NCBI GenBank assembly: GCA_964503885.1
Contig: CAZDCD010000013.1
Span: 50,696-114,695 of the forward strand
DNA length: 64,000 nucleotides
Direction: 5' to 3'
Source of the DNA: an uncultured Bacteroidales bacterium
GTDB taxonomy: Bacteria; Bacteroidota; Bacteroidia; Bacteroidales; UBA10428
The notes under the pieces are model-generated. The model did not search any database and was not told the DNA's origin. It saw only the letters and a list, made by a program, of their open reading frames with translations. The number at the start of each line of letters is the position of its first letter. Positions within the stretch are counted from its first letter, which is position 1. Positions 57,554 to 64,000 of this stretch are shown piece by piece. The position numbers were made by a program, and so were the translations under genes.

Positions 57554-59038
57554 TTAGTTTGATATCCCCTTGAAGACTTTTCTGTAATGGTATCCGTAAA
57601 TGCTGTAGGTTATTGCAAGAGGAAACAATTCGGGTTTTTTCAGAAGACTCCAGAAAAAAAGTTTCCAGTAATAGATCCGGCTTTTATTGAAGATGCCGAT
57701 GATAAAAATAGATTTGGTCAGAGTGATAAGATCTTTAAAAGAAATCTTTCTTATGGTTTTTAATGGCGGGTTATAATGCCTGAGGAATGATATTACACGG
57801 TTGTAATACGCCTTACTCGAATAGATGCCCTGTATGATTTTCTGATAGCCGTTAAGAAGGTCCTGCTTATTCATTTTTGGTATAAAATTCAGCGAATAGT
57901 TGGTATTGTCTCCGCTCCATTCGTTGGTGATACGACCTTCTTTCATCAGCCGTTTATAGAGCAATGTTTTTTTTGGTGCATTCAGCAATCCCACCATAGC
58001 CGATACGATTCCGCTTTGCTGGATAAAATCGATCTGATGCTGGAAAACAGCCGGCGAATCATTATCGAAACCCACTATAAATCCGGCCATAACCTCCATT
58101 CCGGCCAGTTGGATGGTTTTTACACTGTCAACCATATCCCGCCTTTCATTCTGGGTCTTGTTGCATTCGGCAAGACTGGCTTCTTCAGGTGTTTCAATAC
58201 CTACAAATACCCTGTAGAATCCTGCTTCCACCATCAATTTCATGAGTTCGGGATCGTCTGCAAGATTGATGGATGTTTCGGTAAGAAAAGTGAACGGAAA
58301 TTTGTTTTTCTCCATCCAATTGATGAGCGCAGGCAGAAGTTCTTTCTTTAAGATATTTTTATTGCCGATAAAATTATCATCCACAAAAAATACCGGTCCG
58401 TCCCAGCCTGTTTTCTTTATGTTATCGAGTTCCATCAGGATCTGACGGCTGGTCTTCAGCCTGACCTTGTGGCCAAAAAGTGCGGTGATGTCGCAAAATT
58501 CACAATTGAAGGGGCATCCTCTTGAAAACTGTATGCTCAGGGTTCCGTATTTCGAAACGTCGATCAGGGAGTAATCGGGCAGAGGGGTGCTGGTCATATC
58601 TGCAAATTCTTCAGATTGGTAAATCCTTTGAGGCCGTCCTCTTTCCAGGTCATCGAGAAAGCGGGGTAATGTAATTTCTGCTTCATCGAGGATCAGGTGA
58701 TCGATATCGCTGAAATTTTCAAAATCGACGGTAAATAATGGACCCCCTGCAACAATTTTTGTGTTCAGCGATTTGCATCTTTTTATGACTTCATTTGCAG
58801 ACGTTATCTGTACCGACATGGCACTGATAAACACATAATCAGCCCATGCAATTTCCTTATCAGTAAGCTTCGAAACATTCAGGTCAATCAGTCTTTTTTC
58901 CCATTCATGAGGCGTGAGTGATGCAGCAGTGATCAGGCCGAGTGGGGGATTCGCCGCTTTTTTGGATATAAACTTCAGTGCATGTTTATAGCTCCAGTAA
59001 GTAGGTGGATATTTCGGATATACAAAAAGTATTTTCAT
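57554..59038 (-). CDS. B12-binding-domain radical SAM enzyme with DUF4070-like C-terminal region, paralog A
   Basis: 494 aa. [11 protein letters not shown]...PPLGL...ISAMSVQ (B12-binding-like). [13 protein letters not shown]. C-terminal [11 protein letters not shown]...[12 protein letters not shown] region as in BchE/HpnJ-like class B enzymes. Confidence 0.85.
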   Translation of the reverse strand: [494 protein letters not shown]

Positions 59039-59056
59039 TATTTAGATATTCCTGGA

Positions 59057-59064
59057 CAAAATTA
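59057..59064 (-). promoter_or_regulatory. Candidate -7 box (TAATTTTG on the minus strand) for the radical-SAM/desaturase operon
   Basis: Plus-strand CAAAATTA at 59057-59064. It lies 19 nt upstream of the ATG at 59038. Confidence 0.45.
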
Positions 59065-59173
59065 TTTTGAAGTTTTTCTATATAAAAATAAAAGGGACAT
59101 CTGACCGGTATACGGGATAAACATGCAAAAAATGTGAGGAATGGTATTTATCGGGGTAGATGGCATTCACCCC

Positions 59174-60025
59174 TCAGGGAGTGGTAATCGCCTCTTTAAC
59201 AAGTAAAAGATACTGTCTTGAAACGGGTATTTCTTCGGGATAACCTGATAGTTTTAGTTTATAACCTGCATATCCATGTGTAAAATCAAGCACAAATTTT
59301 TTGTTTACTATGCATGTACGATGTGTACGGATGAATTCCGAATACTTTTTTAACTGTGTTTCAATATTTCGTAATGTATTGCGGATCAACTTCTGTTGAA
59401 TTTTCTCATCGTCCTTATATAAGATCTCCACATAATTATCGGCTGATTTTACTAAAATTAGATCGTCTATATTCAGCTTAATGATTTCAGATTTATTGTC
59501 GGAACTAAAAACTTCCACGGGTTTGCCTTTTTCTTCTGTATCAGATAAAAGAAGAGAAAGATTGTTATTCTTTTCGATCAGGGCCTGCAATAAATTGTTT
59601 AGGGATTTACGTGTATCGGATGTTATCAGTATAACCAAAGGAACAAGGCTAACCAGTGCAATTTTAAAAATCAGGTACATCGACATTCTCAAAGGACCGA
59701 CATACCGGATATAAAAAACAAAAGCCAGTGAATTAAACAGCCAGATCAATACATAAATCAATGTTTCGGAATGGATGTCCCATTTATTAAAACGTAAAAA
59801 TCCATGAAATGTATAAGGGATTAAGATGCGAAATATCCACATCATAAGATAGGTAATACCTCCAAGTCCTGCAGTATATAAAAGTTTTTCGTCTATGTTG
59901 GGACGGACAGATCCAAAAGGTTGAAAAAACAGGATAAACAAAAATATTCCCAGGCTGATGCCAAAAAATAATTTTAGCTGTTCTTTGAGAGTATATAATG
60001 GGGAAGAATTATTTAACGGATTCAT
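59174..60025 (-). CDS. Membrane-tethered LytTR-family DNA-binding protein (no receiver domain)
   Basis: 283 aa. Four N-terminal TM helices. C-terminal LytTR pattern ILVKSADNYVEILY...IRTHRTCIVNKKFV. Confidence 0.8.
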   Translation of the reverse strand: MNPLNNSSPLYTLKEQLKLFFGISLGIFLFILFFQPFGSVRPNIDEKLLYTAGLGGITYLMMWIFRILIPYTFHGFLRFNKWDIHSETLIYVLIWLFNSLAFVFYIRYVGPLRMSMYLIFKIALVSLVPLVILITSDTRKSLNNLLQALIEKNNNLSLLLSDTEEKGKPVEVFSSDNKSEIIKLNIDDLILVKSADNYVEILYKDDEKIQQKLIRNTLRNIETQLKKYSEFIRTHRTCIVNKKFVLDFTHGYAGYKLKLSGYPEEIPVSRQYLLLVKEAITTP

Positions 60026-62229: not shown

Positions 62230-62361
62230 ATTATGCAATTCTATTCCGGAATTGTGTAAAAAGATTGGAATTTATATTTCTGACCTTTACACAACGAATA
62301 CAATAAATTCCGGGAAATAAGTATATCATGATGCTATTTTCCGGTTTTATGCATTTCCCAG

Positions 62362-62781
62362 ATGATCAAAACTCCGAAATATTATCTTAATGAGATCTTC
62401 AATAAATTTATTGAGCCTTATTTTTCGCTAAATAATTATATTATTTCATTGGAATGGGATACTATTTATGGTGCATATAAATATGTAGTTACTCCCAAAG
62501 GGAACCTCAATAAGTTTATCAGCCTTTACCTTTTCGGACATGGTATGAAAAATAATTTTGAAATGAGAATCATATATACCCATATTGATGAATTCAATAA
62601 TCATTATACAAAAAAACTAACATTTTTACTGGCATTTGATGACATAAACAGGTTCAATAATTTTTACAAAGACTTTATAAACGAACTCGATGAAAAGAGT
62701 TTGAACGATATCAATATCGGGGTATTACGACCAATACTCCCTGTTTTCATACCAAAGCGCCGTGGAAAATATACCTCATAA
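62362..62781 (+). CDS. Hypothetical protein (139 aa), AT-rich, no recognisable domain
   Basis: ORF only. N/K/I/F/Y-rich composition. Confidence 0.4.
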   Translation: MIKTPKYYLNEIFNKFIEPYFSLNNYIISLEWDTIYGAYKYVVTPKGNLNKFISLYLFGHGMKNNFEMRIIYTHIDEFNNHYTKKLTFLLAFDDINRFNNFYKDFINELDEKSLNDINIGVLRPILPVFIPKRRGKYTS

Positions 62782-62917
62782 TGCTTCATTGAGATAAAAA
62801 CAGAATCTTGATGCAAGTATGCATCTATTTGAATTAAGCCTTGAAATTTAAAATTGTTTTTAAGTTGAGATTAATATTAGTGAAAAATCCACATTACCAT
62901 AAAACCAATTAAAAATA

Positions 62918-64000
62918 ATGAATATTCTATTTGTTTATCCGCTCTATCCCGATTCATTCTGGAGTTTCAGCCATGCCCTGCGATTTATCTCTAAAAAAGC
63001 AGCAGTGCCTCCTTTAGGGTTAATAACAGTATCTGCTATGCTGCCGTCTGACTGGCAGAAAAAACTGGTGGATATGAATGTTACAGCACTAAAGACAAAA
63101 GACTTACAATGGGCCGATTATGTGTTTATCAGTGCAATGTATATTCAAAAGGAATCGGTCAACAAAATTATTGACATATGTGTAGAAAATGACGTTAAAA
63201 TGGTCGCCGGTGGCCCCCTGTTTACCCGGGAATTTAAAAACTATCCACAGATTGACCATTTTATCCTGAATGAAGCAGAAATTACATTGCCCCTGTTTCT
63301 GAACGATTTAAGCAATGGCATTCCGAAAAAGGTATACAGAACGGATAAGTATTCAGATATTTCGCATACCCCGACACCTGATTACCACCTTTTATCAGGG
63401 AAAAAGTATGCGTTTATGAACATCCAGGTCTCAAGAGGATGCCCCTTCAATTGTGAATTTTGTGAAATAACGTCTCTTTTTGGTCACAGGGTCAGAACAA
63501 AATCGATTAAGCAGATCATTGATGAACTTGATGCATTGAACAACCTGAACTGGCGTGGACCGGTATTTATCGTGGACGATAATTTCATAGGGAATAAAAG
63601 TGAAATCAAAAATAATTTGCTGCCGGCAATGAAAAAATGGATGCAAAGGAATAAATACCCGTTTACATTCAATACAGAAGCTTCAATTAATCTTGCAGAT
63701 GACGAAGAATTAATGCGGCTGATGGTTGAAACAGGATTTAATTCGGTTTTTATCGGTATCGAAACTCCCGAAGAAAGTTCTCTTCATGAATGCAATAAGG
63801 TTCAGAATAAAAACCGCAATCTTTTGATGAGTATTAAGAAGATACAACAGGCGGGATTACAGGTTTCAGGAGGATTTATTGTGGGTTTCGATAATGATTC
63901 GCCGGCTGTTTTCCAGCATCAGATCGATTTTATCCAGCAAAGCGGAATCGTATCGGCTATGGTGGGATTGCTGAATGCACCGAAAAACACCCGGCTTTAT
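62918..64000 (+). CDS. B12-binding-domain radical SAM enzyme, paralog B (3' end outside the window)
   Basis: Absent from the ORF track because no stop is reached. ATG at 62918, frame open to 64000. Translation [17 protein letters not shown]...PPLGL...[13 protein letters not shown]...[38 protein letters not shown] is collinear with paralog A. Confidence 0.85.
   Translation, partial: [361 protein letters not shown]

Follow-up and report, generated by a model that had tools for sequence, protein, structure and literature searches.

Two radical-SAM paralogs, rSAM-A and rSAM-B (A and B below), lie head to head in the 64,000-nt stretch of Bacteroidales DNA that we analyzed (the window), and a 110-nt sequence that they share almost letter for letter (tract 1) is very probably the scar of a recent ectopic, that is inter-paralog, gene conversion. 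Conversion took place at least twice, in opposite directions, and both events are younger than the split from every sampled relative.

Table 1. Positions in the window of the paralogs, their neighbors and the shared tracts.
Feature	Coordinates	Strand	Description
rSAM-A, B12-binding / radical SAM / DUF4070 protein	57554..59038	-	494 aa, identical to P0001
rSAM-B, paralog of A	62918..64000	+	Translation and Pfam; first 361 codons, gene continues past the window end
LytTR-domain protein gene	59174..60025	-	Pfam PF04397; directly upstream of rSAM-A, between the repeats
AraC-family regulator gene	61669..62229	+	Pfam PF12833, PF00165; upstream of rSAM-B, between the repeats
139-aa ORF	62362..62781	+	ORF list; between AraC and rSAM-B
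Tract 1, copy in A (probable recipient)	57975..58084	-	Minimal exact part 57975-58075, gene nt 964-1064
Tract 1, copy in B (probable donor)	63872..63981	+	Minimal exact part 63881-63981
Tract 2, copy in A (probable donor)	58494..58525	-	32 nt exact; 10 residues, CxxxCxxC cluster motif, gene nt 514-545
Tract 2, copy in B (probable recipient)	63431..63462	+	32 nt exact
Possible third short patch	58821..58840	-	20-nt exact run, partner 63116-63135; 10-residue motif

Both paralogs carry the B12-binding, Radical_SAM and DUF4070 domains of Pfam, and both have the CxxxCxxC motif, in the form CPFNCEFC. The domains of rSAM-A are PF02310, PF04055 and PF13282, and its database match, P0001, was 100%. Those of rSAM-B were taken from the precomputed domains of its full-length protein, P0121 (511 aa, 100% identical), which is encoded on the same 121,165-bp contig as P0001. 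In these three domains and the motif, A and B resemble class B (cobalamin-binding) radical SAM enzymes with a DUF4070 C-terminal domain. They differ from the characterized families: membership in PhpK, HpnJ, HpnR, BchE and the ladderane-lipid radical SAM enzymes was rejected, with all scores far under the curated NCBIfam cut-offs (the best hit of all, to PhpK, reached 90-95 bits against a cut-off of 600), and no NCBIfam model scored above its cut-off for rSAM-A.

The two genes align without gaps over 361 codons, with 63% identity in protein and 67% in DNA, and synonymous sites between them are saturated outside tract 1. A and B are old paralogs from two distinct subfamilies, and their regulators differ: A is paired with LytTR, B with AraC. 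The LytTR gene keeps its position in homologous loci L081-L093, and the AraC gene adjoins B in L081, L090 and L094-L098 as well. The ORF between AraC and rSAM-B gave no match in Pfam or NCBIfam; a 141-aa ORF occupies the equivalent position in L090 and L091.

An earlier note on this DNA had reported that one copy of tract 1 equals the reverse complement of the other at 109 of 110 positions, with ATA in A versus ATT in B as the sole mismatch, and that both encode the same 37-residue peptide in frame. We obtained the same result on all three counts. The longest exact run is 101 nt, and the inverted arms are 5787 nt apart on divergently transcribed genes. The part of the protein that it covers is the best conserved in the family and closes the radical-SAM domain, immediately ahead of DUF4070. 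Both of its borders fall inside the window and are sharp: the 5' flank is type-specific (MEVMA versus LQVSG), and 3' of position 63981 the A and B sequences diverge again.

Elsewhere the paralogs were said to differ freely at synonymous sites, and this too was borne out. The motif offered as an example, GIETPEE, has 3 silent differences in 21 nt between A and B, and outside tract 1 the same codon is used at 91 of 182 conserved degenerate codons. Inside the tract, the same codon is used at 34 of 36. Sliding-window analysis of synonymous divergence revealed a local drop in tract 1: over codons 319-355 the proportional divergence between A and B is 0.08, and over codons 1-318 it is 0.78. Taking as the chance baseline the 78-83% nucleotide identity of the same stretch in orthologous A/B pairs, we calculated that the chance of at least 109 matches in 110 is 4e-11 to 3e-8.

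We compared the window with L081 and L090, two orthologous loci of other Bacteroidales with the same divergent A/B gene arrangement. Over the 110 nt, A and B agree at 109 positions in the window, at 91 in L081 and at 86 in L090, and the synonymous divergence of the orthologous pairs in codons 319-355 was 0.59 (L081) and 0.72 (L090). In these pairs, the longest exact runs between A and B measured 14-20 nt over the gene's first 1083 nt, and the only one of them within tract 1 was a run of 14 nt in L090 (nt 1018-1031). Because the orthologous pairs diverge normally there, the identity of the tract is lineage-specific and does not mark a conserved site. No tract of this kind was found in the tandem pair of L010, the best match to tract 1 among about 100 homologous loci of other genomes was 85%, and the tract 1 core had no match in the metagenome collection.

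The direction of transfer was assessed from sites that distinguish the two subfamilies. Tract 1 matches B orthologs at 88-94 of 110 positions (93 for the B gene of L090) and A orthologs at 83-86. Where it reads V and Q, the closest 11 B-type proteins have V in 11 and Q in 9, while the closest 11 A-type proteins have I in 10 and K in 9. At nt 969 and 991, two fixed differences inside the tract, both copies show the B state; nt 943 and 949-951, immediately 5' of it, are still type-specific and are A-type in A. The presumed recipient, A, therefore carries donor-type states within the tract and its own type outside. Because the diagnostic residues and bases in the tract are B-type, B appears to have been copied into A, a call that draws on the two residues and the two fixed nucleotide sites just named, together with overall similarity, in a small set of orthologous DNA sequences. 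The exchange was non-reciprocal: the copies are identical (109/110 in tract 1, 32/32 in tract 2) and not swapped.

At tract 2 the diagnostic codons point the other way. There B reads TTC AAT TGT (CPFNC), the A-type codons, in place of the TTT TCA TGC (CPFSC) of B orthologs, and it shows the A state at nt 532-534. Three B orthologs differ from the A gene of the window at 8-10 of the 32 nt, and the B gene of the window at none. The variable residue of RGCPFxC is N or D in 119 of 120 A-type proteins; in B-type proteins it is S in 82 of 120, A in 33 and N in only 3. By these characters tract 2 was probably copied from A into B, opposite to tract 1. The possible third patch is weak, lacking diagnostic sites, and control paralog pairs reach exact runs of 14-20 nt too, so it is not significant alone.

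Together, the fall in synonymous divergence, the differing orthologs, the B-type states in A and the second tract give good support to the first of two readings in the earlier note, homogenization by recent gene conversion. The comparisons show that about 101-110 nt of A were overwritten by B sequence and, separately, that B took up A sequence over about 32 nt at its cluster motif. The route could have been non-reciprocal repair of a heteroduplex after RecA-type strand invasion between the inverted copies or, alternatively, a replication template switch between nearby inverted sequences, and it may have nucleated where the paralogs were already most similar. Identity at the tract 1 stretch before conversion was only about 80%, and exact runs of only 14-20 nt offer little length for RecA-dependent initiation of the classical kind, which leaves the molecular route uncertain. 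The outcome was probably near-neutral, with about 2-4 conservative residue changes in A (the diagnostic ones being I to V and K to Q) and one in B, where S became N beside the second cysteine of the cluster. As a by-product, conversion would have left a perfect inverted repeat of 101 bp, through which homologous inversion could occasionally occur; there is no sign that the repeat is used or maintained.

We considered it improbable that the paralogs truly differ and that assembly or polishing overwrote the consensus of one copy with the other. In favor of such an error, the sequence is a single MAG contig, P0001 and P0121 each having 1 member on 1 contig. However, with about 80% local and about 60-65% flank identity, reads should not cross-map between the paralogs, and De Bruijn bubble merging requires shared flanking k-mers, of which the type-specific flanks give none. 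It is also hard for polishing to produce two tracts with opposite donors and sharp in-frame borders, and the mismatch between ATA and ATT was kept within the 110 nt.

The second reading in the earlier note, a maintained recombination substrate or inversion site, was not supported. Under it a site-specific invertase or RecA would invert the 5.8-kb segment, like an hsdS-type shufflon, swapping DUF4070 tails and downstream genes between the LytTR- and AraC-controlled enzymes. The geometry is right, as had been pointed out: crossing-over within the tract would flip 5.8 kb and exchange the tails in frame, the repeats being inverted, exact over 101 nt and in a shared frame at the boundary between radical-SAM core and DUF4070. 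The two conversion tracts mean, moreover, that the copies physically interact, and crossover can accompany conversion between inverted repeats, giving inversion.

We nevertheless judged a maintained substrate very unlikely. The identical tract is missing from the orthologous loci that share the arrangement, an outcome that the earlier note had named among those leaving a conversion of little functional meaning. No recombinase domain (Phage_integrase, Resolvase or other) turned up in the 39 ORFs that we scanned in the 64-kb window, a set that included 22 of the 25 ORFs of 170 aa or longer listed for the first 35 kb and longer ORFs elsewhere, and no recombinase was seen beside the genes in the orthologous loci. 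The relatives share the configuration of the window, with A head joined to A tail, followed by a desaturase gene and then by a second radical-SAM gene, rSAM2; the window carries the ancestral orientation. Among 238 homologues there were 0 chimeras, neither A-head/B-tail nor B-head/A-tail, and a search of 5.8 billion proteins returned nothing that joins a head 100% identical to B to another tail, and nothing with about 86% overall identity to A. Finally, the repeat lies where neutral conversion is expected, in the stretch of protein that the family conserves most.

It is highly improbable that the 101-bp repeat acts as a recombinase-independent domain-swap switch, with RecA-mediated inversion of 58085-63871 at appreciable frequency in the population. 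If it did, chimeric B12-radical-SAM enzymes would arise in frame, with the A core on the B DUF4070 tail and the reverse, control of the downstream desaturase and second radical-SAM genes by LytTR versus AraC would be re-wired, and the repeated conversion would be the footprint of ongoing exchange.

Identity without DNA transfer, through purifying selection plus codon bias or through a nucleotide-level functional element (RNA structure, regulatory or binding site), is barely credible and already largely refuted: no other segment in the whole family is as conserved as this peptide, and baseline nucleotide identity at the tract exceeds the gene average (78-83% versus 62-67%), yet orthologues encode nearly the same peptide with 15-18 synonymous differences between A and B, Rfam gave no match in 53000-64000, the chance probability, here put at 4e-11 to 4e-7, stands against it and, since no homologue in about 100 loci is more than 85% identical to the tract, 109 of 110 cannot be put down to codon bias or to a conserved nucleotide element.

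Recent, repeated ectopic gene conversion between inverted paralogs is a phenomenon already known. The tuf copies are also inverted, and recombination between them can also yield inversions. Ectopic gene conversion between duplicated genes has been described for tufA/tufB of Salmonella (Abdulkarim & Hughes 1996, as cited in PMC8022953), and concerted evolution for rRNA operons (PMC8022953, PMC6002687). As in those systems, copying between A and B is non-reciprocal, involves paralogs of one chromosome and leaves homogenized stretches with sharp borders. The tuf genes, about 99% identical over their full length (1169/1182 bp; PMC8022953), are kept equivalent, whereas A and B are old and belong to functionally distinct subfamilies with different regulators and only 63% protein identity, and conversion reached no more than two short patches (about 101-110 nt and 32 nt), in opposite directions, on a background of about 80% local identity.

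Inversion systems offer the other comparison, namely the hsdS epigenetic invertons or shufflons of Type I restriction-modification loci (PMC7672463) and the intragenic invertons of Bacteroides (PMC10028968). Repeats in these systems measure 15-60 bp and are recognized by a dedicated invertase of the tyrosine or serine type, whose gene usually lies within the locus or next to it, and clonal populations contain both orientations (PMC7672463). The inverted repeats of A and B likewise lie within oppositely oriented coding paralogs, where inversion would exchange domains in frame. Unlike those of the invertons, they come with no invertase found in the window, are not conserved in relatives, have one known orientation and are explained by conversion.

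The tracts reveal neither a new mechanism nor a new kind of genetic element. What they provide is a clean, well-bounded example of old, functionally separate paralogs that still exchange short patches, in both directions, when close and inverted. The exchanges fall in the most conserved motifs, and such patches can mislead radical-SAM phylogenies and subfamily assignment, for instance by mimicking convergent evolution, as where a B residue beside a cluster cysteine was turned to the A-type state. They also create perfect inverted repeats, which can break short-read assemblies or seed rare inversions.

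rSAM-A and rSAM-B are divergently transcribed paralogs that align without gaps at 63% protein identity and 67% DNA identity, with C-terminal tails that are 50% identical. Both are B12-binding/radical-SAM/DUF4070 proteins (the domains of rSAM-B were precomputed for its full protein, P0121, of 511 aa), and against characterised NCBIfam families every score fell far below the curated cut-off. They represent two distinct, widely distributed subfamilies. The nearest relatives in protein searches shared 73-78% identity with rSAM-A and 80-84% with rSAM-B, none being closer than 78% and 84%, respectively. 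The minus-strand gene order is SDR, rSAM2, fatty-acid desaturase, rSAM-A, LytTR, and the plus-strand order is a 149-aa ORF, AraC, a 139-aa ORF, rSAM-B. The run of rSAM-A with SDR, rSAM2 and the desaturase suggests a predicted lipid-modifying pathway. We found the order A-type gene, desaturase, rSAM2 again in L090 and L091, two homologous loci from other genomes.

Coordinates of genes and tracts in the window and in related loci
Feature	Location	Coordinates	Strand	Remarks
SDR	window	53516-54502	minus	
rSAM2	window	54947-56308	minus	B12-binding radical-SAM gene without DUF4070
Fatty-acid desaturase	window	56342-57514	minus	
rSAM-A	window	57554-59038	minus	494 aa
rSAM-B	window	starts 62918	plus	leaves window end after 361 codons
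Tract 1	window	A 57975-58084; B 63872-63981		
Tract 2	window	A 58494-58525; B 63431-63462		over CxxxCxxC motif
Candidate third patch	window	A 58821-58840; B 63116-63135		20-nt exact run over 10-residue motif
Insert	window	61096-61560		about 465 bp
A and B pair	L081	A 10001-11482; B 2894-4420		metagenomic Bacteroidales, same divergent arrangement
A and B pair	L090	A 10001-11482; B 5827-7338		metagenomic Bacteroidales, same divergent arrangement
LytTR and B-type gene	L099	9014-11497		
LytTR and B-type gene	L100	3882-6365		

The earlier note had reported that tract 1, read as the reverse complement in rSAM-A, matches rSAM-B at 109 of 110 positions, and had attributed this to recent gene conversion or to a maintained recombination substrate. 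We confirmed the match, in which the sole mismatch, close to the 5' end, is ATA against ATT and the longest exact run is 101 nt (A 57975-58075, B 63881-63981). The arms are 5787 nt apart, in agreement with the 5.8 kb claimed, and they do encode the same 37-residue peptide in frame. The earlier note's example of silent change at the GIETPEE motif (3 differences in 21 nt) was also correct, as was the free synonymous divergence described outside the tract, where the same codon is used at only 91 of 182 conserved degenerate codons; inside tract 1 the count is 34 of 36. Nei-Gojobori proportional synonymous divergence was 0.08 over codons 319-355 versus 0.78 over codons 1-318, and in sliding windows of 36 codons it ran at approximately 0.6-0.97 along the two genes, then dropped to 0.14-0.15 over tract 1. 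A blastn search of the whole window with tract 1 matched only the two known copies. Baseline nucleotide identity is raised here because no other part of the protein family is as conserved as this stretch. At a baseline of 78-83%, the identity of orthologous A/B pairs over the same stretch, the chance of at least 109 matches in 110 is 4e-11 to 3e-8.

The identical tract is absent from the orthologous pairs. Over tract 1, A and B match at 91/110 positions in L081 and 86/110 in L090, and synonymous divergence over the same codons is 0.59 and 0.72, with the usual third-position differences. The tandem pair of another homologous locus, L010, has no conversion tract in this stretch. Since these three pairs are normally diverged, the near-identity is specific to the lineage of the window; it arose later than the divergence from every sampled relative and is not a conserved feature of the locus. 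A conserved conversion hotspot was rejected on the same three loci.

Tract 1 matches B orthologs at 88-94 of 110 positions and A orthologs at 83-86. Where it encodes V, the closest 11 B-type proteins have V in 11/11 and the closest 11 A-type proteins have I in 10/11; where it encodes Q, the counts are Q in 9/11 and K in 9/11. We also defined 57 diagnostic sites at which five A orthologs can be told apart from three B orthologs. Tract 1 contains two of them, gene nt 969 and 991, and at both of these the two window genes show the B state; the sites immediately 5' of tract 1 (nt 943, 949-951) are still type-specific. Because of the closer match to B orthologs, the B-type V and Q and the B state at both sites, tract 1 was copied from B, the donor, into A, the recipient.

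Tract 2, a 32-nt exact run common to both genes (TCAAGAGGATGCCCCTTCAATTGTGAATTTTG), points in the opposite direction. At this motif all three B orthologs have TTT TCA TGC (CPFSC), and they show 8-10 differences from window A over the 32 nt, compared with 0/32 for window B. The residue at this site is S or A in 115 of 120 B-type proteins, with N in only 3, and N or D in 119 of 120 A-type proteins; the diagnostic-site scan likewise placed window B in the A state at nt 532-534. Since window B carries A-type bases and an A-type residue unlike its orthologs, the short patch was transferred with A as donor and B as recipient. A third conversion patch might lie at a 20-nt exact run that is no longer than the runs of control pairs.

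Ectopic gene conversion has thus taken place between A and B. Its signature is that the identity is non-reciprocal and confined to this lineage, the borders are sharp, and the recipient carries characters of the donor type. The first alternative of the earlier note, recent homogenisation by conversion, is borne out by the synonymous drop, the diverged orthologous pairs and the donor-type states. The events could have proceeded by RecA-type strand invasion and heteroduplex repair, or alternatively by template switching during replication between inverted sequences lying close together. Ancestral local A/B identity was only about 80%, and in the orthologous pairs the only exact A/B run of at least 12 nt within the tract is one of 14 nt, which is short for classical homologous initiation. 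Such short runs agree with events that were rare and fell within the best-conserved motifs. The third paralog, rSAM2, was rejected as donor, because its nucleotide sequence over this region bears no relation to tract 1 and the blastn search of the window matched only the two copies. A double inversion with different crossover points was rejected on logic, as it would exchange segments reciprocally and not make them identical.

An assembly or polishing artefact could in principle produce such identity, but this is unlikely, as the flanks are too diverged for read cross-mapping, the two tracts have opposite donors, and one mismatch was kept within the 110 nt. The other alternative in the earlier note was that the tract is maintained as a recombination substrate. 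A crossover in tract 1 would indeed invert 58085-63871 and exchange the DUF4070 tails and downstream genes in frame, and this geometry is all that speaks for a switch. However, the repeat is not conserved in L081 and L090, and no recombinase domain turned up in those ORFs of the 64-kb window that were scanned, nor any recombinase beside orthologous loci. In its head-tail pairing and in what lies downstream of A (the desaturase, followed by rSAM2) the window matches L090, and the tail of P0121 is B-type. Among 238-240 homologues there were 0 proteins that joined an A head to a B tail or a B head to an A tail, and nothing resembling a chimera expected from this species came back when 5.8 billion proteins were searched. 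Two kinds of programmed inversion with comparable geometry, hsdS epigenetic invertons (PMC7672463) and intragenic invertons (PMC10028968), depend on repeats of 15-60 bp and on an invertase that recognises them and whose gene usually lies within or next to the locus; the window locus does not show these defining features. We consider an active, recombinase-independent domain-swap inversion highly improbable. Neither codon bias nor a nucleotide element embedded in the genes accounts for the identity: these ideas are refuted by the normal divergence of orthologues, with no sequence above 85% identity to tract 1 among approximately 100 homologous loci fetched from other genomes, and by an empty Rfam scan of 53000-64000 (E <= 0.1).

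In a genome-collection scan the top match to rSAM-A was 72% identical; the source species is not among the GTDB representatives. In the metagenome collection the 36-nt lineage-specific core of tract 1 had no match in either orientation of the segment. A second match within 10 kb occurred in 6 of 80 loci; only two of these were close paralogs, in L010 (tandem, 58.5%) and L068 (inverted, 55.6%), and the remainder were distant radical-SAM genes of 28-41% identity. Outside L081 and L090 the A and B modules occur apart, with LytTR-A and AraC-CSD but no B in L092, and AraC-B-CSD without A in L094-L098. In L099 and L100 a LytTR gene, not AraC, directly precedes the B-type gene, and therefore the pairing of regulator and subfamily is not fixed across genomes. 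On the L092 contig (MAG contig JAFGBD010000014.1; 3912-4913 and 11502-12870), the B-type gene is absent between AraC and the cold-shock gene, and the rSAM2 counterpart is broken into two ORFs of 132 aa and 295 aa; together these may reflect decay of the module in that lineage.

The spacer between the divergent modules is variable (L081 6017-8645; L092 5154-8949). Relatives carry spacer genes absent from the window, namely a 434-aa ORF, DUF6320 and an Rce1-like protease, plus a RelA_SpoT-domain protein in L092. In their place the window has small ORFs and an insert. With the 149-aa ORF on one side and the AraC gene on the other, this insert had no match in any fetched locus, orthologous ones included, and no second copy in the window. 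Inverted repeats of the CGTGAGTTCG type border it (61103-61125 versus 61532-61554) and occur once more at 61218-61242; its core (61320-61500) has a predicted RNA fold of -69 kcal/mol (z = -7.1 versus shuffles) with no Rfam match for the insert. The insert may be a MITE-like element, or alternatively a structured RNA not yet described.

The effect of the conversions on the proteins is minimal, with about 2-4 conservative residue changes in A and one in B, S to N, adjoining the second cluster cysteine. The closest known cases are duplicated bacterial genes that undergo ectopic conversion, for example tufA/tufB (reviewed in summary in PMC8022953), and rRNA operons that evolve in concert (PMC8022953, PMC6002687). 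Unlike those, the A/B case involves old, functionally distinct paralogs, short patches only, and exchange in both directions. Conversion between A and B is not a new kind of element, but a fresh instance of a known process.
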